15,349 bases of DNA, from the IMG/VR virus record IMGVR_UViG_3300025407_001511. One strand, given 5' to 3'. Numbering within the stretch: position 1 is the first letter of the stretch; each line of letters begins with the position of its first letter. The DNA is from a virus. This document shows, piece after piece, positions 1,331 through 15,143 of the stretch. The notes beneath the pieces were generated by a model. That model had not been told where the DNA came from, did no database searches, and saw only the letters and a program-made list of their open reading frames with translations. The translations under genes were made by a program, and so were the position numbers.

Positions 1331-1332
1331 AG

Positions 1333-1406
1333 CGACCTTGATGGGACTCGAACCCACGACCCCCACCGTGACAGGGTGGTGCTCTAACCAACTGAGCTAC
1401 AAGGCC
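1333..1406 (-). tRNA. trnD: tRNA-Asp, anticodon GUC.
   Basis: The reverse complement of 1333-1406 folds as a canonical cloverleaf. Acceptor stem is GGCCUUG/CAAGGUC with one G-U pair. D arm is GCUC-AGUUGGUUA-GAGC. Anticodon stem is CCACC/GGUGG with loop CUGUCAC, giving anticodon GUC. Variable loop is GGGUC. T arm is GUGGG-UUCGAGU-CCCAU (GGTTCGAGTCC box). Discriminator is G and no CCA is encoded. It is wedged between two coupled CDSs, with a 9-nt gap above and a 2-nt gap below. Confidence 0.9.
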
Positions 1407-1415
1407 TAAACTGCG

Positions 1416-1730
1416 TTACTTCTTAGGCGTAGCCTTCTTGACAGCAGGAGCCTTCTTAGCAACGGGTGCTGGCGTAGGTTCTACGACAACAGCAGCAGTC
1501 TTAGGCTGAGGAAGGGTACCAAGCAACCAACCAAGATTGGGGTACTTCTTCTCCAAGGCAGTGATAGCCGTGTAGTACAGGCCAGAAGCGACAGGTGTCA
1601 ACGCAGCGAACGTACCGGTGTTGAACTTACCCCACTTGGTTGCACCCCAAGCGATAAGAGCACCAACGATAGCAGCAACAAAGGCACGGCCTATAGCTCT
1701 AGTTGTTGTTGTGTTAATTGGATCTGACAT
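1416..1730 (-). CDS. Small membrane protein with two predicted TM helices and a Lys/Pro/Ala-rich C-terminal tail; holin-like candidate.
   Basis: 104 aa. Hydrophobic segments are AIGRAFVAAIVGALIAWGA and GTFAALTPVASGLYYTAITAL, followed by a basic tail PAPVAKKAPAVKKATPKK. A Shine-Dalgarno AAGGAG lies 8 nt upstream of the ATG at 1728-1730. It lies just downstream of the putative peptidase gene at 1943-2491. Confidence 0.45.
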   Translation of the reverse strand: MSDPINTTTTRAIGRAFVAAIVGALIAWGATKWGKFNTGTFAALTPVASGLYYTAITALEKKYPNLGWLLGTLPQPKTAAVVVEPTPAPVAKKAPAVKKATPKK

Positions 1731-4414: not shown

Positions 4415-4579
4415 TTAGTTCTGGTCCTCTGCATCAAGATCCTGCAAGTCTCTATAGTTCTCGCTAGGCTTATCTTCATCATTAAGACCAGCTACGTCCT
4501 TAGTTGTCTTAATTGTTGAAGTAGGGCTATCTGTGATGACGCGGGCATTCTTATCTGGCTTGTTGCTGTATCTAATCAT
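4415..4579 (-). CDS. Small hypothetical protein, 54 aa.
   Basis: ATG at 4577-4579 with AAGGAAAGG Shine-Dalgarno 8 nt upstream, 2 nt after the stop of the preceding gene. The track ORF 4415..4615 begins at a TTG further upstream. Confidence 0.4.
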   Translation of the reverse strand: MIRYSNKPDKNARVITDSPTSTIKTTKDVAGLNDEDKPSENYRDLQDLDAEDQN

Positions 4580-4870: not shown

Positions 4871-5101
4871 TTAGTTAGCTTTGTAAGCTACAAGTGCCAA
4901 GTTCTTTAGGCACTCTTCTGGGGTGATCCCATTTACGCTTGATAGTTTATTGATAAACACCATCATAACACCAGCAAGTGAGCTGAAGAGTTGGATGGGA
5001 TCACTCTCGAGGACCATTTCATAAGCTAGTTCCTCTTGGCCGCTGATGATTGCTGTCATCAAAGCGACTACGTTGCCAATGTTCTCTGTTACAGAATCCA
5101 T
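4871..5101 (-). CDS. Small hypothetical protein, 76 aa.
   Basis: The track ORF begins with a GTG at 5137, inside the Dps gene. The in-frame ATG at 5099-5101 overlaps the Dps stop as TAATG and is the more plausible start (MDSVTENIGNVVALMTAIISGQ...). Confidence 0.4.
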   Translation of the reverse strand: MDSVTENIGNVVALMTAIISGQEELAYEMVLESDPIQLFSSLAGVMMVFINKLSSVNGITPEECLKNLALVAYKAN

Positions 5102-5622
5102 TATGCCTCGGTAGACGCCTTCAAGAACCAACTCCACTTTTGGTGTTGATCAATGCGTTCAGCAATGAAGTTTGCAATACCTTGCTCGTTATCTTTGTCA
5201 GCAAGAACAAAGACCTTTTTAATGTGATCAATGTATTCGTTATTCATATCTAAGAATTGCTTAGCAAGATTACGTGCATCATCATCGTTAGAACCTACTT
5301 CTTTAATTCTACTAAGTCCAGACAATTGGCTCATTACAAAAGGAGCTTTAGCATCAAGCTTTCTGATGTTTTCTGCAATTGGGTCAATGTTTTCGTAGAT
5401 ATCATCTACGATCTCATCAAAGAACTTGTGATATTGATAGAAGTCATTACCAACAACATTCCAGTGGAAACCATGAATAGTGTGATAGAGAACGTATGCT
5501 TCAGCAAGCATTCTTTTCAGAGCAGTGACCAAATCACTAACATCTTCTTCATATTCTGGGTTTCTAGTGTCGTCTTCTACTTCTGTTGCACTGACGACTC
5601 TAAAGCCATTCCAATTGTCCAT
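5101..5622 (-). CDS. dps: Dps-family (DNA-binding protein from starved cells) ferritin-like protein.
   Basis: 173 aa. Dps hallmark motifs are present: HTIHGFHWNVVGNDFYQYHKFFDE (ferroxidase-site His/Asp/Glu spacing) and the typical C-terminus ...ERIDQHQKWSWFLKAS. ATG at 5620-5622. Confidence 0.7.
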   Translation of the reverse strand: MDNWNGFRVVSATEVEDDTRNPEYEEDVSDLVTALKRMLAEAYVLYHTIHGFHWNVVGNDFYQYHKFFDEIVDDIYENIDPIAENIRKLDAKAPFVMSQLSGLSRIKEVGSNDDDARNLAKQFLDMNNEYIDHIKKVFVLADKDNEQGIANFIAERIDQHQKWSWFLKASTEA

Positions 5623-7014: not shown

Positions 7015-8295
7015 TTAGAACCTAAAGAACTTTTCGAGAACATCAACGGGGAGACCGATAGATGAAGTTCTTGCAGCAGGTGGGTTCGTTGGGTCTTTTG
7101 CCCAAGCTGCTCTAGAAGCAACATCTGCATTGTTTTTAGCTTTGTTGTAGTTCATGCCAGTTCCAGGAGTCGCTATAGCTTTTCCATGTGCTTCTGCTGC
7201 ATCCATGTGTGCGAAGTAAGCTTCTCTGTGATCAGGGTTGTTACCATGGAAAGTATCAGCACCATGAAACTCTGGAGAACCATCGGAGTTTGTTCTTCCT
7301 GTCCATGGAGTGTTACCCTGCAACTTGTTAGCAGCATTGAGGTGATTATCACGCAAAGTTGCATGATAGTTATTGGTATCATCCTTTTGGGAGTCTTTAC
7401 GATCCATGAACATGTGTGCAGCATCATACATACCGGCTTGCTTGGATGCAGTGGCGTGACCAAAACCATCAGTCAGCTCAAGAGGACCACGATCAGCTTC
7501 GCCAGGTGTCATATCGTGTGAACGAGGAATTAAGTTGCTATTTGGTTTAATGTCATACAAGCTTTGACCTTCGCTCTGCTGAGGGGTCTTGTTGTAGAAC
7601 TTGTATTGTGTGTAACCGTTGTAGTAGTCCTTGCTCAAGAGGGCAAGATCCTCGTCCATTGGCTTACCGGCTTGTGCATCGCCGTAGCCTTGGTAGTAAA
7701 GCTCACTGTCGTTAGCTTCTTTGAACATAGCGTAGAAAGCACCAGCGGCACCCATCTTGGCTTCTTCCTTAACGATGTCACGCCCAGCATCAAGGTCGCC
7801 AGCAGTAGGGCCTTCTACTGTTGTAAGGCTCTCACCCGAGAAGTTATTTTCGCCAATGCCGTGGTCATTAGCAGGCTGGTTGCAACCACAATTTGTGCAT
7901 GCAATGCGTGTTCCTGGGAAGTATGTCTTTTCGCAGTGATTACAGAATGGCTCACCATTCTCCATCACGTATGCAATTCTTGCATTCATGCTCATGTTTG
8001 CTCCAATAATTGTTGATAGCGATCCTGGAGATACGCTAGAAAGCCCTTCATTGCTTACAACTGGTGGTTGCCCCTCGAGATCAATTGTATCCTTAGGCTC
8101 ATCGCCCAAAGCAGTCAATCTCGTAGAGTTTTCGTCTTCGTTACCAATGTCTGCAAATCTAAAGTGGCCAACAGTACCGACTTGGCTTTGTCCTGGAAGG
8201 CCAAACCCTGCATCGTCTTCTTCGGTAGCGTCTTCAATGCCTCGTAGCGAAGCATCGTCTCCGTAATTACCGTTATCCTGCGTAGCGTATCTCAT
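7015..8295 (-). CDS. Hypothetical protein, about 426 aa, with an internal zinc ribbon (CNHCEKTYFPGTRIACTNCGC); rich in Gly/Asn/Asp and possibly structural.
   Basis: Long ORF. The first track codon at 8296-8298 is TTG, and the ATG at 8293-8295 is the likely start. No recognisable enzyme motif. Confidence 0.55.
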   Translation of the reverse strand: MRYATQDNGNYGDDASLRGIEDATEEDDAGFGLPGQSQVGTVGHFRFADIGNEDENSTRLTALGDEPKDTIDLEGQPPVVSNEGLSSVSPGSLSTIIGANMSMNARIAYVMENGEPFCNHCEKTYFPGTRIACTNCGCNQPANDHGIGENNFSGESLTTVEGPTAGDLDAGRDIVKEEAKMGAAGAFYAMFKEANDSELYYQGYGDAQAGKPMDEDLALLSKDYYNGYTQYKFYNKTPQQSEGQSLYDIKPNSNLIPRSHDMTPGEADRGPLELTDGFGHATASKQAGMYDAAHMFMDRKDSQKDDTNNYHATLRDNHLNAANKLQGNTPWTGRTNSDGSPEFHGADTFHGNNPDHREAYFAHMDAAEAHGKAIATPGTGMNYNKAKNNADVASRAAWAKDPTNPPAARTSSIGLPVDVLEKFFRF

Positions 8296-8330: not shown

Positions 8331-9410
8331 TTATTCCCAGCTGGTTGGTTTGTCATTGTTAGTTGAATTGAAACGATCTTCATTCAACAAATCAATTAAT
8401 CTATTGCTGCTACCAGTGATTGGTCGAGCTGGCGTTGGGAAGTTAGATATAGTTTGTGGGAAATTAAGCTCAAGGTTAATTCCTGCTCCAGGACCAGATG
8501 ACCCTTTTTCTGGCGTTTGCTTTGTAGGCATTGGTTCTTGACCAGTTTCAAGCTTAGTTTTCTGTTGTGGTGGGTTACTAGTCTCTTGCTCACTCTTAGT
8601 AGAAGTTTCTTCTTCAAGAGAAGGTTCTGGCATAGCTTCTGTTTTATCACCAATTGTTTTAGGAGCTGGCTGCCAAGTTGTGGGAGATGGTTGTGGTGTG
8701 CTAGGAGGAGTCTTTGATGGCTTACCAGGAACAGTGAAAGGTGGAACTGTGATTGGCTTAGTAGGAGCCAATGGGTGAGTCTCGAGAGGCATGATGCTAC
8801 CAACTACGGGGTTAGCAGGGCTTGCAAAGCTCTGTCCACCACCAGAATCTGGCGTATTGTTGATATCATTGCTATTGTCGCCATTTTCATTACCGCTTGA
8901 GTTGCTACTAGGCAAGTTCTTCAATGCATCGCTAAGGCCACCACCTTCTGCACCTGCAGCGGCCTCTCCAGCGCCAGCGACTGCTTCTCCAGCACCAAGA
9001 AGCTCTGGGATAGCAAGAAGAGGACCAGCAGTCACAATTGTGCTTGCTGTGACCATGCGAAGTTCCTTAGCAGCGAACCCCTTACCAGCTTCTGACTGGT
9101 AAACTTGGTTATCTGTCAATGCATAAGGAATAACGTTAACAGTTGCGTGCGCTTTGCGCAGCATTTCTGTTGCAATGCCTTGGTTTCGGTATTCTGGCTC
9201 GACGTAAACACCATCCATGATGTAGTTGCCACTAGCTTGCTTTTCAGCAGTGAAATAACCGATTCTTTCGTCTCCAACCATTGCTTCAACAAGAAGACCA
9301 GAGAACGTGCCACCAGTCTTGTATTGCATTGGGCCAACGTTAGCAACAATTCGAACCTTGTCACCTTGTTCTTCAAGGATCTCATTAAGTCTTGGTGGGA
9401 TAGTAGCCAT
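8331..9410 (-). CDS. GNAT-family N-acetyltransferase-like N-terminal domain fused to a long Gly/Ala-, Ser/Asn- and Pro/Thr-rich low-complexity C-terminal region.
   Basis: 359 aa. GNAT motif A is VYVEPEYRNQGIATEMLRKA (R-x-x-G-x-A acetyl-CoA pyrophosphate loop). Residues about 130-359 are low-complexity (AGAGEAAAGAEGGG..., PPSTPQPSPTTWQPAPK...). The ATG at 9408-9410 overlaps the upstream stop (TAATG). Confidence 0.5.
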   Translation of the reverse strand: MATIPPRLNEILEEQGDKVRIVANVGPMQYKTGGTFSGLLVEAMVGDERIGYFTAEKQASGNYIMDGVYVEPEYRNQGIATEMLRKAHATVNVIPYALTDNQVYQSEAGKGFAAKELRMVTASTIVTAGPLLAIPELLGAGEAVAGAGEAAAGAEGGGLSDALKNLPSSNSSGNENGDNSNDINNTPDSGGGQSFASPANPVVGSIMPLETHPLAPTKPITVPPFTVPGKPSKTPPSTPQPSPTTWQPAPKTIGDKTEAMPEPSLEEETSTKSEQETSNPPQQKTKLETGQEPMPTKQTPEKGSSGPGAGINLELNFPQTISNFPTPARPITGSSNRLIDLLNEDRFNSTNNDKPTSWE

Positions 9411-10138
9411 TATAGTTTTCCTAGGTCAGTAGTGAGGTCTTCAAGGCGCATATCGCCATATTGACCCTTTTCAACAATCTCTGGAGTGATGAGAGCCCAG
9501 CTCTCTTCCATGTAGCTTTGCAGCCATCTCCACGTTACCTTCTGCACTTTACCCCAGGTAATACATTCAGCGTAGTCCTTGTCGTAACCTACGAGGATGA
9601 CACAGTGGCCACCTTCGATCTGATTGTCAGCAGGAGTGCCTGTAAGGTCCCATGGCTGGTTGTCAAGGAATTGCTGCTGGAAGGTGACTGGGAGCTTTAC
9701 ACCAATGTATACAAGCCCATATGAGGCAATTACGCTACGGAGCTCATCAAGGTCAGCATGGTCAGTAGGGGCGAACGCAGCAAGCTTTGTGTTGAACAAG
9801 CCGTTGGTCTGCCAGTACTTTAGTAGGTCCGCCTCGACCGCTCCAGCATCTTGTCCATTCGTATAATTGAGATAACTTTGCTCGACTTCGGTGTCAGAAG
9901 GGAATCCTTCTGTAAGTTGTAAGAAAGCAGCGTTAGCCATTCTGGCGTGAACAATACCAGCAAAAGTACAATCCCCATATTTATCATTTCCTAACATTCC
10001 CCAATTATCTACGTTTGGCACTGCTACGCTCTCTGGTGCAGCTGGCAACGGGTTGCCCTGATAGAAAGCAAGCATGTGCAACCCAGCAGGGCGCTTAGGA
10101 TCTAGCTTACCTAATTTACCAACAATACGATCAGTCAT
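9410..10138 (-). CDS. Papain-like (clan CA, C1-like) cysteine peptidase.
   Basis: Track ORF 9410..10165 has an in-frame ATG at 10136-10138, 2 nt after the upstream stop (MTDRIVGKL...). The Cys motif is NDKYGDCTFAGIVHA (papain QGSCGSCWAF-like, with an Asn 6 residues before the Cys). The His motif is GGHCVILVGYD (papain HAVAAVGY-like), about 131 residues after the Cys as in papain. A Trp sits 17 residues after the His (ITWG, like papain NSWG). Confidence 0.5.
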   Translation of the reverse strand: MTDRIVGKLGKLDPKRPAGLHMLAFYQGNPLPAAPESVAVPNVDNWGMLGNDKYGDCTFAGIVHARMANAAFLQLTEGFPSDTEVEQSYLNYTNGQDAGAVEADLLKYWQTNGLFNTKLAAFAPTDHADLDELRSVIASYGLVYIGVKLPVTFQQQFLDNQPWDLTGTPADNQIEGGHCVILVGYDKDYAECITWGKVQKVTWRWLQSYMEESWALITPEIVEKGQYGDMRLEDLTTDLGKL

Positions 10139-10140
10139 TA

Positions 10141-10509
10141 TTATCTCCCATAAACATCTTTCCATTGACTAAAAGTCAAACCAGTTTTGCCTGCAAGGAA
10201 CGAGTGAGTGTTGCAATATGGCCTTGGCACTGAAGAATCAGACCAATGCATGTATTTTGCTTCGTACTTCTTACCTTGGCAGTCGCCATGAGCACATGCA
10301 GCCATACCCTTGCGGTCTACGTAAGGTGCTTTCCTAGTTTTCTTAGGAGGCTCTGGCTGTGGGTTCTCTGCTAAGTACTTCTGCGTGTTCTCGCAATCGG
10401 TAGTGTCTTTGCACCTACCGCTGCTAACGATTGTGTGGGTGCCATCATCTGATGCACCACAGAGCTGACATTGGTCAGGACGAGCAGCGTAACGTTCTGA
10501 CCAAGACAT
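10141..10509 (-). CDS. Cys/His-rich small protein, 122 aa; member C of the N-terminal W-S-x-R-Y-A-A paralog set.
   Basis: Starts MSWSERYAARPDQCQLCG... It contains many Cys/His residues consistent with zinc binding (CQLCG, GRCKDTTDC, CAHGDC, CNTH). The ATG at 10507-10509 overlaps the upstream stop (TAATG). Confidence 0.5.
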   Translation of the reverse strand: MSWSERYAARPDQCQLCGASDDGTHTIVSSGRCKDTTDCENTQKYLAENPQPEPPKKTRKAPYVDRKGMAACAHGDCQGKKYEAKYMHWSDSSVPRPYCNTHSFLAGKTGLTFSQWKDVYGR

Positions 10510-10964
10510 TAGAAGTATTTCTGTCGTTCTGACGGAGTCATCTTGCCTGATTTTGCTACAGCAGCATCGTGGCTCAGCGGTGTTGGGTTGGGGTTATGAC
10601 GTCCATTGACTATTGTTTCTCCAACTGATCTAAGCAAGCTATAGTGATTGGGAATAACATTTTTGTTGAGAGCGTCAATCGCTTCATCATGTGTAGCTAG
10701 CAGTCTGGGCTCTAAAGCTTCTGGGCCACCAAGCCATGGATCATTGCGTGCACGTGCACTAACATATAAACTGATATTGTGACCCTGGGTATAGGCATGC
10801 ATCATTTCGTCTTCGGTAATACCGTGTCGCCTAGCATCATCAACATGCTTCTTTTGAATAAGCTTGGGGTTGCCTGAGTTGGCGTGATCAATCAGCTTCT
10901 CAAAGTAGTGTGGATCACCATAACCAAAGGTATCTTCAGCTGCGTATCTTCTTTTCCAATTCAT
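10509..10964 (-). CDS. Hypothetical protein, 151 aa from the ATG at 10962-10964; member B of the N-terminal N-W-K-R-R-Y-A-A-E paralog set.
   Basis: Track ORF 10509..10985 begins at a non-coupled upstream codon. The ATG at 10962-10964 (MNWKRRYAAEDTFGY...) overlaps the stop of gene A as TAATG. The body is unrelated to A and C and is His-rich (RRHGITEDEMMHAYTQGH). Confidence 0.5.
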   Translation of the reverse strand: MNWKRRYAAEDTFGYGDPHYFEKLIDHANSGNPKLIQKKHVDDARRHGITEDEMMHAYTQGHNISLYVSARARNDPWLGGPEALEPRLLATHDEAIDALNKNVIPNHYSLLRSVGETIVNGRHNPNPTPLSHDAAVAKSGKMTPSERQKYF

Positions 10965-11155
10965 TAATCTTCTCCAAGGATCCAATCGGCTACTTCTTTA
11001 CTGCGTGAGTGTTCTTGTCCAATAGATGGCCCTTCTTGTCTACTCAGTTCAGAAATAATGTGTTTTTCTGCTTCAGTAGTGTTAGGGCATTGCAGTTTAG
11101 GCCAGCCATGGCATGAACAGCTTTCTGCTGCGTATCTTTTAGACCAATTACTCAT
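10964..11155 (-). CDS. Small protein, 63 aa; member A of the paralog set (MSNWSKRYAAESCSCHGW...).
   Basis: The ATG at 11153-11155 overlaps the HNH gene stop (ATGA). It shares its first 11 residues with B and C, and about 15 of 17 nt with B at the DNA level (AGATACGCAGC). Confidence 0.5.
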   Translation of the reverse strand: MSNWSKRYAAESCSCHGWPKLQCPNTTEAEKHIISELSRQEGPSIGQEHSRSKEVADWILGED

Positions 11156-11574
11156 TTGATGAGTCCTCTCACGTATTTTGCTGCCTCAAAGTCACTGTAA
11201 GCTGTGACGTGTTTGCCACCATGACCTCTGTGGTGGAAAAGGCATAGCCATTCCAGGTTTGTTGCGCTCTCTACCCATGCACCAACGGTGTCTGGGTCGC
11301 TAACGCCGGGGTAATCGACTTCGAGCCACTTAAGATCGACGCCATTCTGCAATGAGAACTCAATATGAGTGTGGTGAAGCTCCAAAGGGTGCTCAGAGTC
11401 GCACTCACTGAAGTCATTGCGGTGTTCACCGATAGCACATTTAGCTGTTGCCTTCGTTTTCTCACGGAAATGGTGAAAATCGACGTAATGTGGGTCATCT
11501 TCACGCTCTGGGTGAGGTGGATAGTGAACGGTGTAATGATGAGTGATGTTCTGGTCGTGTTCTTCGACGGTCAT
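11152..11574 (-). CDS. HNH-family endonuclease-like protein.
   Basis: 140 aa. Carries LELHHTHIEFSLQNG...NLEWLCLFHHRGHGG, matching the HNH core (HH...N...N-L-x-x-L-C-x-x-H-H), with upstream Cys (KCAIGEH...SECDSEH) for a zinc site. The ATG at 11572-11574 overlaps the upstream stop (TAATG). Confidence 0.5.
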   Translation of the reverse strand: MTVEEHDQNITHHYTVHYPPHPEREDDPHYVDFHHFREKTKATAKCAIGEHRNDFSECDSEHPLELHHTHIEFSLQNGVDLKWLEVDYPGVSDPDTVGAWVESATNLEWLCLFHHRGHGGKHVTAYSDFEAAKYVRGLIK

Positions 11575-12038: not shown

Positions 12039-13154
12039 TTATTCGCCAGAGTAGCTATCATCAGCGTGAACAGCTCTATTTATAGCTGTTGAAGGACTGT
12101 AAAGGTGAGAAACACCCTCTCCACCTCTCGCACGATGACGTACTCTTGGTGCAACTACAGCTGCATGGTTGTCTTCGTCCTGTCTAAAGTTGACATGGTG
12201 GTTGATAATGGTCTGTTCAGCCTTCGTACCATACAAAACACGGTGGTGTGAACGTCTTCCGACCTTACCAAACTCTCCAGCTTCCTTAGAAACGGGGAAA
12301 CCAGCGAAATAAGCGGCTCTAATCTTGGGATCTTGAGTTCTTTTGGCTGCTTCTTCGTGGTGTTGCATGTCCCAAAGCTGGTTTGTGGGGTGAGTACTGT
12401 CATTTACAACGCAGTATGGGCAGAAACACTTAACAAAACGGGCAGTTTTACCCTGATCGATGACATTTTGCTCAACAGGATCGATAGCATCGTGCGTATT
12501 GCACATGTTATTGATGGTGTGGTTGAATGCGTGGTGCACTGCAAGGTCACCATGGGTGTGATCACTGACAGTTTTCATGGCATCTCGGTAGAACTTAGGG
12601 TCCTTGATGCCATTACGCTTACCCTCGTTGAATGCCATGATCGTTTCAATGTGCGATTGGCCCAAAGCTGAGAGTGGGTGGACCATCAAACGCTCACCAG
12701 TCTTTGCATTCACGTGTTCACCGGCACGGAAAGCACGATCATCCAGGTGGCCCTCTTCGCTGGGAGCAATCATCATAGTAGGTTGATGGATACCCTGCTC
12801 GAGCTTGTAAGGCTTACCAGTGGTCTTGTTGCGAACAGCAACGGTCATGTAGTCACTTGCGGTTTTAACGTTGGCAAGCTGCGAGTGAGCGCGACTGTGA
12901 TACCAGTCGCCCTTTTTGCTTTGCTTCAAGCCAAACAAACGCACTGCGTCAGGATTGGGCTCTTCGCCCTCACCAAGGCTACCTATGTAGTGATTAGCGG
13001 CTTTCTCAGCAGCATGAGGCACATGATAGTACTCAGGGTCTTCCTTGTGGGTGGCGTAGCCAGTACCCTCTTGGAAGATAAGCGTCATAGCGTTGGCAGG
13101 TCCGCCAGTCTTGAATTGCTTATCGTGTTTTGCAGCTTCTCTGCTGTTGAACAT
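12039..13154 (-). CDS. Hypothetical His-rich protein, 371 aa.
   Basis: Long ORF. ATG at 13152-13154 with AGGAG 8 nt upstream. Contains many His plus a CFCPYC motif. No confident family assignment from motifs alone. Confidence 0.55.
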   Translation of the reverse strand: MFNSREAAKHDKQFKTGGPANAMTLIFQEGTGYATHKEDPEYYHVPHAAEKAANHYIGSLGEGEEPNPDAVRLFGLKQSKKGDWYHSRAHSQLANVKTASDYMTVAVRNKTTGKPYKLEQGIHQPTMMIAPSEEGHLDDRAFRAGEHVNAKTGERLMVHPLSALGQSHIETIMAFNEGKRNGIKDPKFYRDAMKTVSDHTHGDLAVHHAFNHTINNMCNTHDAIDPVEQNVIDQGKTARFVKCFCPYCVVNDSTHPTNQLWDMQHHEEAAKRTQDPKIRAAYFAGFPVSKEAGEFGKVGRRSHHRVLYGTKAEQTIINHHVNFRQDEDNHAAVVAPRVRHRARGGEGVSHLYSPSTAINRAVHADDSYSGE

Positions 13155-13260: not shown

Positions 13261-13926
13261 TTAGCAACCACCACGGCAAATCCATCCAGTACCGTATTCT
13301 TGACTTGGGTCCCAAACAATGTCTTGGGTGTTTCCACAGTTGTAGCAGTAGCGAGAATTGCCTGGGATGTGCCCATCCATAGGCTTATTTTCCCCCATTG
13401 AGTTATCGTTGGCGTAACGCTCAGCGAAAGAAGCACTCTTAGGCTTAAGTGGTGGCACATCGCGAACGTGCTTGTAGACTTGTGGGTCGTACTTAGTGTC
13501 TGGGTCTTGCATCATTTTCACTCTTGAATTAAGAGGAACGTTAGGATTTGTTACTTCTTTGCTAATGTTTGTCTGAGGAGCCTTGCTCTTTGTGCTTGTC
13601 TGCTCTGTGGGGAAATGCTTTTCCATAAGATCACTATAGTGTTCCACAAGGCTCTTTTGGTTAACGCCTGGTTGTGTGCGCTTCAGTACTTCTTGGTGCA
13701 TCTCATTAATTTTGCCAACGCCTTGCTGGAACTTCCCAATGCTGTCCATAACGTCATTGTGGTTATTACGGACTTCATCAACCATTCTTGCATTAGGGAC
13801 GTTAGGCTTGTTCTTTTCGTATTCATCACGCGTTTGGTATCTATTCTCAGCGATTCTAATCGCCGCCATTTTTGCATTGCCAAGTGAGTTCTGGTAGCTC
13901 TTTGACCAGTCGTTGAATTGTGCCAT
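13261..13926 (-). CDS. Hypothetical protein, 221 aa, with a C-terminal zinc ribbon (CYNCGN...WICRGGC) and an N-terminal NDWSKSY motif related to the A/B/C paralog leader.
   Basis: ATG at 13924-13926 with AAAGGG upstream. It is the first gene of the minus-strand block next to the divergent junction. Confidence 0.5.
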   Translation of the reverse strand: MAQFNDWSKSYQNSLGNAKMAAIRIAENRYQTRDEYEKNKPNVPNARMVDEVRNNHNDVMDSIGKFQQGVGKINEMHQEVLKRTQPGVNQKSLVEHYSDLMEKHFPTEQTSTKSKAPQTNISKEVTNPNVPLNSRVKMMQDPDTKYDPQVYKHVRDVPPLKPKSASFAERYANDNSMGENKPMDGHIPGNSRYCYNCGNTQDIVWDPSQEYGTGWICRGGC

Positions 13927-14747: not shown

Positions 14748-14795
14748 AACTAAACCAGTCCTGAGGAGGACACTATGAAGGAAGTAACAACGATC
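14748..14795 (+). repeat. Copy 1 of a perfect 48-bp direct repeat spanning the Shine-Dalgarno, ATG and first 7 codons (AACTAAACCAGTCCTGAGGAGGACACTATGAAGGAAGTAACAACGATC).
   Basis: Identical to 15196-15243, 448 bp away. The flanks differ immediately outside the 48 bp. Confidence 0.85.
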
Positions 14796-15143
14796 GACGC
14801 TGCTAAGGCTTTGGTTGAGCACTACGCTGCTGCGGCTGAGCTCATGACTGCTGAGGCTAAGGCTGAGTACGAGGCTGCTTTGGCTGCGTACGAGGCTGTT
14901 GAGGCTAAGTACGAGGCTAAGCAGGACGCTGCTTGGGCTAAGCGTGACGCTGCTAAGGCTGAGTACTACGCTGCTCAGGCTGAGTTCAAGGCTGCCGAGG
15001 CTGAGTTCGACGATGCTTGGGCTGAGTACCACGCTGCTTTGGCTAAGTACGACGCTGCTTTGTCTAAGCCTGAGGTCAAGGCTGCTTGGGCTAAGTTCTA
15101 CGCTGCTATGGCTGAGCTCAACGCTGCTCAGGCTGAGCAGTAA
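14775..15143 (+). CDS. Acidic Ala/Glu/Lys/Tyr-rich heptad-repeat (coiled-coil) protein, 122 aa.
   Basis: A strong Shine-Dalgarno GAGGAGGA sits 7 nt upstream of the ATG. Aromatics (Y/F/W) recur every 7 residues (positions 32, 39, 46, 64, 71, 78, 85, 92) in an A-E-Y-x-A-A-x heptad. Net charge is about -13. The gene is about 58% GC with extreme GCT/GAG/AAG codon bias. The antisense ORF 14742..15032 is an artefact. Confidence 0.65.
   Translation: MKEVTTIDAAKALVEHYAAAAELMTAEAKAEYEAALAAYEAVEAKYEAKQDAAWAKRDAAKAEYYAAQAEFKAAEAEFDDAWAEYHAALAKYDAALSKPEVKAAWAKFYAAMAELNAAQAEQ
14850..15130 (+). repeat. About nine tandem copies of a 21-bp unit (consensus GCTGCTnnGGCTGAGTACGAG-like), in frame within the Ala-rich gene.
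   Basis: Copies read directly: ggctgagtacgaggctgc, ggctaagtacgaggctaagc, ggctgagtactacgctgc, ggctgagttcaaggctgc, ggctgagttcgacgatgc, ggctgagtaccacgctgc, ggctaagtacgacgctgc, ggctaagttctacgctgc, ggctgagctcaacgctgc. Confidence 0.7.

Follow-up and report, generated by a model that had tools for sequence, protein, structure and literature searches.

A short peptide tag with the consensus [N/S]-[W/F]-[N/S]-x-R-Y-A-x-[E/D] was identified at the head of at least 109 distinct open reading frames (ORFs) in related contigs of uncultured freshwater phages, and likewise at the head of three adjacent genes, referred to here as A, B and C, in a 15,349-nucleotide stretch of viral DNA (IMG/VR record IMGVR_UViG_3300025407_001511; this whole stretch is termed the window). 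There is very little doubt that the tag is real and is selected as a peptide. The reading favored overall is that it is a portable docking tag, with the procapsid as the leading guess for its receptor, and the probability of this reading is put at about 0.4.

Three coupled genes with a common N-terminus

The window is phage-like, and nearly all of its genes lie on the minus strand. Genes A, B and C are located between a gene for an HNH-like protein and a gene for a papain-fold cysteine peptidase (Table 1). Their coordinates, strand and peptide starts, as given in a first-pass annotation of the window, were rechecked and found to be correct, and the 63-, 151- and 122-aa products were reproduced by an independent gene caller on identical metagenome contigs. 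The claimed coupling by TAATG overlaps was likewise found at both the A/B and B/C junctions; in addition, the HNH-like gene and A overlap by ATGA, and 2 nt separate the end of C from the start of the peptidase gene. The three proteins diverge after the leader, as had been stated; a BLASTP alignment of B with C covers residues 1–9 only, and none of the three has a Pfam or PHROG match. A six-frame translation of the window contains five matches to the pattern W..[RK]Y[AS], three of which are at the starts of A, B and C; 500 dinucleotide shuffles gave a mean of 0.26, with three or more matches in 2 of the 500.

Gene A was seen only in contigs of its own phage, and B and C, judged from sequence searches, are almost orphans, with two relatives each among 5.8 billion clusters. 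The full-length relative of B starts MSNWSRRYAAED, and a relative of C (P0125) starts MSNWAQRYAN; the three B and C relatives whose N-terminus is intact retain the tag, and P0122, which has a different N-terminus, has lost it. Homologues of C with 49–51% identity are present in three related loci (L008, L020 and L021), where the tag is N-terminal or internal: C is free-standing in the window and in L020, and is fused behind another module in L008 and L021.

Table 1. Genes of the window that carry the tag or a tag-like start, and genes bordering A–C.
Feature	Position	Strand	Description
Gene A	10964..11155	-	63 aa, Cys-rich; start MSNWSKRYAAE; tag SNWSKRYAAE at 11123-11152
Gene B	10509..10964	-	151 aa, His-rich; start MNWKRRYAAE; tag NWKRRYAAE at 10935-10961
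Gene C	10141..10509	-	122 aa, Cys/His-rich; start MSWSERYAAR; tag SWSERYAAR at 10480-10506
HNH-like protein	11152..11574	-	140 aa; upstream border of cassette; phrog_8048, E 0.004
Papain-fold (C1-like) cysteine peptidase	9410..10138	-	242 aa; Cys57/His178; phrog_19005, E 3e-29
221-aa protein	13261..13926	-	start MAQFNDWSKSY; N-terminal variant tag FNDWSKSY at 13894-13917
371-aa conserved protein	12039..13154	-	FNS tag variant MFNSREAAK at 13128-13151
426-aa conserved protein	7015..8295	-	start M(M)RYATQ, a truncated tag without W
54-aa protein	4415..4579	-	start MIRYSN, a truncated tag

Recurrence of the tag on unrelated proteins

Relatives were drawn from IMG/VR and metagenomes, using the peptidase as one query (8 loci, 70–86% identity) and the HNH-like protein as another (119 relatives in IMG/VR, 80 loci fetched). 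The first locus set contained 49 distinct N-terminal instances of the tag, and an enlarged set brought the number to 109. For 95 of these, exactly two codons separate the start of the ATG from the W/F, which is therefore residue 3. The R, Y, A and W/F positions each carry approximately 3.6–4 bits of information, the last tag position is E or D in 65 of the 109, and the information content falls to background level after this acidic position.

The tagged bodies form 39 BLAST-unrelated clusters, and W, R and Y are the only invariant residues in an alignment of 31 representatives, a comparison akin to the homologue alignment that the first-pass annotation had proposed as a check. Its central claim, that a short conserved leader is attached to otherwise unrelated proteins, is therefore borne out and extends to at least 109 ORFs. 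Several of the bodies have recognizable domains: in a DnaQ/RNase_T exonuclease, the tag (MFNAKYANSE...) lies ahead of Exo I, a motif that begins at approximately residue 30, and ParB-like nuclease and cupin domains are preceded by the tag in the same way. The tag is thus an add-on extension ahead of bodies with known domains.

Approximately 25 further genuine copies were found inside longer ORFs, at module junctions and mostly after [A/S]-S; for example, there are three in L020 10420–11619, two in L021 10420–11751 and one, at residue 981, in L229. The modules of such fused ORFs recur as separate tagged genes in other phages. An ADP-ribosyltransferase identity considered for the tagged module at L021 10603 was dropped, as it had no Pfam or PDB support. 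A second form of the tag, x-F-N-S-[K/R] (the FNS variant), heads larger conserved proteins, such as the 371-aa protein of the window, whose homologues start MFNSKEAAK, MTKFNSRAAAK and MKIFNSSKK; the hybrids KTFNSRYAAG, MKRTFNSRYAHG and MNFNERYAKEK bridge this variant and the main NW..RYA form.

Selection on the peptide

The similarity might instead reside in a DNA or RNA element, such as a recombination junction or a translation-initiation element, or might reflect ordinary paralogy of A, B and C. Genes A and B have AGATACGCAGC in common, with 11 identical nucleotides, and the genes are translationally coupled, both of which would suit such an explanation. However, the same residues in C are spelled with other codons (CGT TAC GCT GCT), and across the tags synonymous codons vary while the residues are fixed: Arg is encoded by both of its codon families (AGA 24, CGT 10, CGC 9, CGA 4 and CGG 1), Tyr by TAT 25 times and TAC 24 times, and Ala by GCT 21, GCC 10 and GCA 9 times, and the Asn codons are split evenly. 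With such free codon variation at R, Y, A and N, it is evidently the peptide, not the DNA, that is under selection, and the 11 nucleotides common to A and B are incidental. A DNA-level repeat or recombination junction was rejected on this codon table; ordinary paralogy was rejected on the 39 BLAST clusters, the restriction of invariance to W, R and Y and the nine-residue alignment of B with C. The bodies are dissimilar and the tag precedes unrelated known domains, so that a nucleic acid element or paralogy is highly improbable as the source of the similarity.

Restriction to one phage clade

Three collections, namely IMG/VR, metagenome contigs and 596 Gb of bacterial and archaeal genomes, were scanned for the degenerate DNA pattern ATGAAYTGGAAYNNNMGNTAYGC. 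The scan returned 31 clustered stretches in IMG/VR, with at most 4 copies per stretch, and more than 120 stretches in the metagenome contigs; the bacterial and archaeal genomes yielded 88 single matches, scattered over unrelated taxa and approximately at chance expectation. An origin of the motif in a host protein, of the type known for L27 and Prp (see below), or in a prophage was rejected, as GTDB genomes contain the strict DNA pattern at about the frequency expected by chance. Among the phages, those with at least 68% identity in the large terminase (TerL) have 2–6 tags in the same neighborhood, in which the sister phages L217, L218 and L234–L236 (TerL identity 58–64%) have none. The tag is therefore confined to one phage clade. 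This clade consists of uncultured freshwater phages, with contigs of up to ~140 kb; at the nucleotide level, the window matches none of the 50,697 deposited phage genomes in INPHARED, and tblastn searches with B and the HNH-like protein for known phage relatives found nothing. The hosts are probably actinobacterial, as suggested by WhiB-like genes and GCRCxxC repeats in related contigs. These WhiB-like small proteins and repeated HGTxxGYxxGCRCxxC modules are encoded at L220 16260–16508 (minus strand), L231 13718–14014 (minus strand) and L023 6618–7757.

The tag could also govern protein stability, as a degron or an anti-degron, so that the accessory proteins have a common lifetime. This would agree with its being fixed at the very N-terminus in 95 of the 109 instances and with its occurrence mostly on small, clade-specific accessory proteins, but the internal copies would not be N-degrons, large conserved proteins are tagged as well, and the chance-level occurrence of the pattern in bacterial genomes provides no class of host-encoded substrates. 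A role in protein stability is accordingly regarded as improbable.

A variable cassette with an HNH-like border

In the clade, the syntenic order is HNH-like gene, variable interval, peptidase gene, in some cases a GNAT gene, then p427, Dps-like and metallophosphoesterase genes. The interval between the HNH-like and peptidase genes measures 0 bp in L002-type phages and 255–2083 bp elsewhere; its contents are lineage-specific, and most of its genes bear the tag or the FNS variant. A second hot spot of tagged genes lies upstream of the p371 family. Tagged genes also occur on both sides of the large terminase gene and are spread over at least 40 kb, and a 409-aa tagged protein is encoded 17 kb downstream of A–C. 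Tagged genes thus have at least two insertion hot spots, and the gap between the HNH-like and peptidase genes is one of them. Given the lineage-specific contents of the interval, the further hot spot and the tagged genes elsewhere, the earlier description of a diversifying cassette was a fair one: an interval of 0–2083 bp holds different tagged genes in each lineage.

The gene at the upstream border had been labeled an HNH nuclease. This label rests on a weak match to phrog_8048 (Table 1) and a compatible Cys/His/Asn pattern (C46, C58, H67, H68, H70, N77, C111, H114 and H115 are invariant); the protein has no Pfam match and no PDB sequence match. It is 65–84% identical (loci L013–L092) across clades that otherwise have little gene content in common, a degree of conservation that is unusual for a nuclease of the homing type, and curated family models fail to recognize it.

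Downstream of the peptidase gene, the window encodes a 359-aa protein (8331–9410, minus strand) with a GNAT acetyltransferase domain at its N-terminus, followed by a hydrophobic stretch rich in Gly and Ala and a long tail rich in Pro, Thr and Ser. The protein at this position in L007 has no GNAT domain and keeps the ends. A C-terminal motif, P-H-Y-[K/L]-G-x-x-W-x-P, recurs in modules (…PHYLGPSWTP, …PHYLGDGWIP and …PPHYKGSK; L007 6445–6825, L065 10157–10483 and L002 7085–7801), and T-[S/T]-W-E forms the C-terminus of the proteins encoded at the GNAT position. This may be a second short linear motif.

The adjoining peptidase

The papain-like assignment of the gene downstream of C was confirmed by a structure model and a Foldseek search. 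The AlphaFold2 model has a predicted local distance difference test (pLDDT) score of 91.4, and its best match is xylellain (3ois; E 2e-9, template modeling score 0.67), followed by Lpg2622, procathepsins and papain, whereas a match to C39_2 is only sub-threshold; the protein is thus modeled as a true C1-like papain fold. There are 222 metagenomic relatives, and C57 and H178 are invariant in the 42 sequences compared. The motif aligned to N-S-W-G reads I-T-W-G, without the Asn, and another residue may substitute for this third catalytic residue.

The position of the peptidase gene had led to the proposal that its product is the dedicated processing enzyme of the leaders. The tag would then be a processing site, the fused ORFs would be small polyproteins and the free-standing genes would encode leader-trimmed proteins. 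Papain-family (C1) enzymes have a P2 preference that is compatible with aromatic residues. The invariant aromatics followed by small residues (W-N and Y-A) would suit this preference, the approximately 25 internal tags lie at module junctions behind small residues ([A/S]-S) and separate modules that stand alone elsewhere, and a C1-like peptidase adjoins the cassette throughout the tagged clade. The distribution of the peptidase, however, does not follow that of the tag. In the sister phage L235, the peptidase is 58% identical to that of the window and 22 kb (~35 genes) are free of tags, whereas L023, with a 55%-identical peptidase, has approximately 12 tags; L002-type phages have no gene between the HNH-like and peptidase genes and carry their tags elsewhere; and distances of up to tens of kb separate tagged genes from the peptidase gene. 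In addition, the conserved positions of the tag extend over eight residues with a helical spacing and are not arranged around one scissile bond. Processing by this peptidase is consequently considered an unlikely function of the tag.

In tag-less phages, peptidase homologues of 30–39% identity are encoded near holin-like genes and a C92 amidase or an N-acetylmuramoyl-L-alanine amidase. The order in a tag-less clade is holin-like genes, peptidase, C92 amidase and HNH-like gene, with tail fibers adjoining (L027 7208–10444; L085 8002–10423), and in the deposited myovirus MW202816 the homologue overlaps an N-acetylmuramoyl-L-alanine amidase at the end of the baseplate module. The window itself has lysis candidates further down the operon, namely a C92-like (permuted papain-like) amidase at 1943–2491 and a small membrane protein at 1416–1730 (minus strand). 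These contexts in other phages suggest an endolysin role, and together with the amidase and membrane genes of the window they make a role in lysis at least as likely as leader processing. The peptidase gene is a conserved flank of the hot spot, and its product is more likely to be related to lysis than to be the dedicated partner of the tag. Gene adjacency is misleading here: the peptidase seems the obvious partner, and the comparative data argue against it.

A proposed portable docking tag

In the explanation that best accommodates these observations, A, B and C would be members of a large, fast-turning set of accessory proteins with a common portable peptide tag. The spacing of the conserved residues suggests that the tag may form a capped two-turn amphipathic helix, in which the N/S at position −1 would be the N-cap, W0 and Y4 would occupy one face, R3 and E7 would be spaced for a salt bridge, and position 5 would be Ala. 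Because this spacing fits a helix, a docking motif is favored and a protease substrate of extended shape is less so. Through the helix, every protein or module would bind to a single receptor common to all, and it is fairly probable that the tag is read by a common receptor of some kind.

The leading candidate for this receptor is the assembling procapsid, in which case the tagged proteins would be packaged and delivered with the DNA, in analogy to proteins carrying the T4 capsid targeting sequence. The identification of the receptor as the procapsid is a tentative one and, taken alone, rather doubtful. The first-pass annotation had proposed packaging into the virion and an anti-defense role, for both of which the evidence is circumstantial. 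The hints that point to the capsid are as follows: tagged genes flank the large terminase gene; one tagged product has 57 aa and a Lys/Ala-rich basic tail; and the domain of one tagged family forms the N-terminus of head-module proteins encoded beside portal or MuF genes in cultured Roseobacter and Vibrio phages. Several results weigh against the docking of cargo onto a procapsid. No prohead protease, scaffold or capsid protein was recognized in the ~40 kb examined, and the ORFs near TerL in L113 and L220, which are candidates for portal, capsid or scaffold genes, have no PHROG, Pfam or PDB matches. The last position of the tag is E or D in only ~60% of instances, which is loose for a T4-like cleavage site. 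Up to ~12 tagged proteins are encoded in 20 kb, more than in known capsid cargo sets, and the carriers include a DnaQ-type exonuclease and large conserved proteins; the internal copies are also without a counterpart in T4. Finally, the AlphaFold2 model of B, which is of low confidence as a whole (pLDDT 50.7), shows the tag at pLDDT <50 and mostly as coil.

Alternatively, the tag could dock proteins onto a hub other than the capsid, such as the phage DNA, a replication or transcription factory, a phage compartment or a host hub protein. The tagged domains that can be recognized are nucleic-acid related (ParB-like nuclease, DnaQ exonuclease, many zinc ribbons and GCRC repeats), and the neighboring alcohol dehydrogenase, transketolase, PfkB, epimerase and metallophosphoesterase are untagged; the presence of the tag at internal positions would also be in keeping with such docking. 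Yet no candidate receptor was found, this functional enrichment rests on a handful of annotated bodies, and cupin and other non-DNA domains are tagged too. A non-capsid hub is judged to be a minority possibility.

A portable docking tag could, in its most general form, amount to a sequence-defined addressing code, in which a capped helix of 8–10 residues, like a signal peptide or nuclear localization signal, marks more than 100 unrelated accessory proteins, and modules of fused proteins, for one phage-specific destination. This destination would be the interior of the capsid or another compartment or complex built by the phage, and new genes would join the system by gaining the tag. Such a code is conceivable, and is held here with less than even confidence. 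If it exists, accessory genes would plug into the phage system by acquiring eight residues, the tagged ORFs would supply over 100 candidates for cargo or effector proteins, the majority lacking known relatives, and the tag itself could provide a short portable means of loading foreign proteins.

Other features of the window and related phages

Apart from A–C and the 371-aa protein, several genes of the window have tag-like starts. The 221-aa protein, noted in the first-pass annotation as a fourth gene with a related NDWSKSY start, does begin in this way, and it contains a second, internal tag (SFAERYAND at 13405–13431) that precedes a C-terminal zinc-ribbon module. Homologues of the 426-aa protein start MMRYATQGNG, MRYATQGNG and MKYADTS, and those of the 54-aa protein start MIRYSNTPDK and MIRYSTQPSK. 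A phage-encoded Dps/ferritin-like protein (5101–5622, minus strand; Pfam Ferritin, E 7e-20) has a 33-residue N-terminal extension with the tag-like start MDNWNGFRVV, and this extension is conserved in its relatives (METWNGFRVV and MTDSWNGFRVV).

A tRNA-Asp (GTC) gene at 1332–1406 (minus strand) overlaps the 5′ end of the ORF called at 482–1366, and the real start of that protein is probably an internal ATG (MNKSINLD...). On the strand opposite to the A–C operon, positions 14775–15143 (plus strand) encode a 122-aa Ala/Glu/Tyr-rich protein with approximately 13 copies of a 21-nt (heptad) tandem repeat (AEAKAEYEAALAAYEA...). Downstream of the window in the same phage, L124 10876–16202 encodes a zinc alcohol dehydrogenase, a split transketolase, a PfkB kinase, an epimerase, a cytidylyltransferase and a cupin, a sugar-nucleotide-type cluster whose content suggests that the phage makes a modified sugar. 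The large terminase gene of a related phage (L112 6314–9046, minus strand; L216 659–3391) contains a 246-aa insertion that starts with Cys and ends SHN|T; these ends, and a 97%-identical terminase without the insertion (L220), indicate that it is almost certainly an intein.

Comparison with known systems

Papain-like proteases of RNA viruses process polyproteins, and a short motif at module boundaries in long ORFs combined with an encoded papain-fold protease recalls this arrangement. Here, by contrast, the modules are mostly encoded by genes of their own, motif and protease do not vary together, and cleavage is hypothetical. The first-pass annotation had also compared the locus with leader-peptide and processing-protease systems. 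An example is provided by ribosomally synthesized and post-translationally modified peptides with their C39-type leader peptidases, which resemble the locus in having tandem genes, a conserved leader, a variable and often Cys-rich remainder and an adjoining papain-superfamily peptidase. This comparison was not sustained: the tag measures 8–10 aa and the bodies 40–470 aa, and because the latter include folded enzyme domains (ParB, DnaQ and cupin), a leader of this type is rejected; moreover, the window contains no modification enzyme or ABC transporter, and the structures that match the peptidase are of the C1 type.

The capsid and scaffold proteins of Staphylococcus phage 80alpha and ribosomal protein L27 have a common N-terminal extension that is cleaved by Prp. 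This system resembles the present one in that a short N-terminal motif is found on several phage proteins, and there it is removed by a cysteine protease. It differs in that its motif is borrowed from the host, whereas the tag pattern is at chance level in bacterial genomes; in addition, the fold of Prp is not that of the C1-like peptidase, and only two phage proteins carry the motif.

By analogy, the closest precedent for the tag is the capsid targeting sequence of T4, MKTYQEFIAE. In the T4 internal proteins IPI, IPII and IPIII and their polymorphic relatives, as in the tagged proteins, an N-terminal leader of approximately 10 residues is the sole conserved part of diverse small proteins encoded in variable loci; the leaders match in length (MNWKRRYAAE vs. 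MKTYQEFIAE), and both often end in A-x-E or A-E. The T-even internal proteins are a diverse set in which only the capsid targeting sequence is conserved, and this sequence loads the proteins into the scaffolding core (PMC3012670). The two systems differ in that the leaders have no sequence similarity, no T4-like prohead protease or scaffold was recognized here, and the terminal acidic residue is less constant in the tag. The present tag also occurs internally, on enzymes and on large proteins, with many more carriers per genome. A literature search on the T4 capsid targeting sequence returned only systems of the T4, SPN3US and P1 types and no description of the motif; its sequence, its phage lineage, its scale (>100 carriers), its presence on enzymes and its internal copies are new. 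If the addressing code proposed above is correct, the tag would join the T4 capsid targeting sequence as only the second well-defined peptide code by which arbitrary proteins are sent to a destination during phage infection, and would do so in an unrelated, uncultured lineage and on a far larger scale than in T4.

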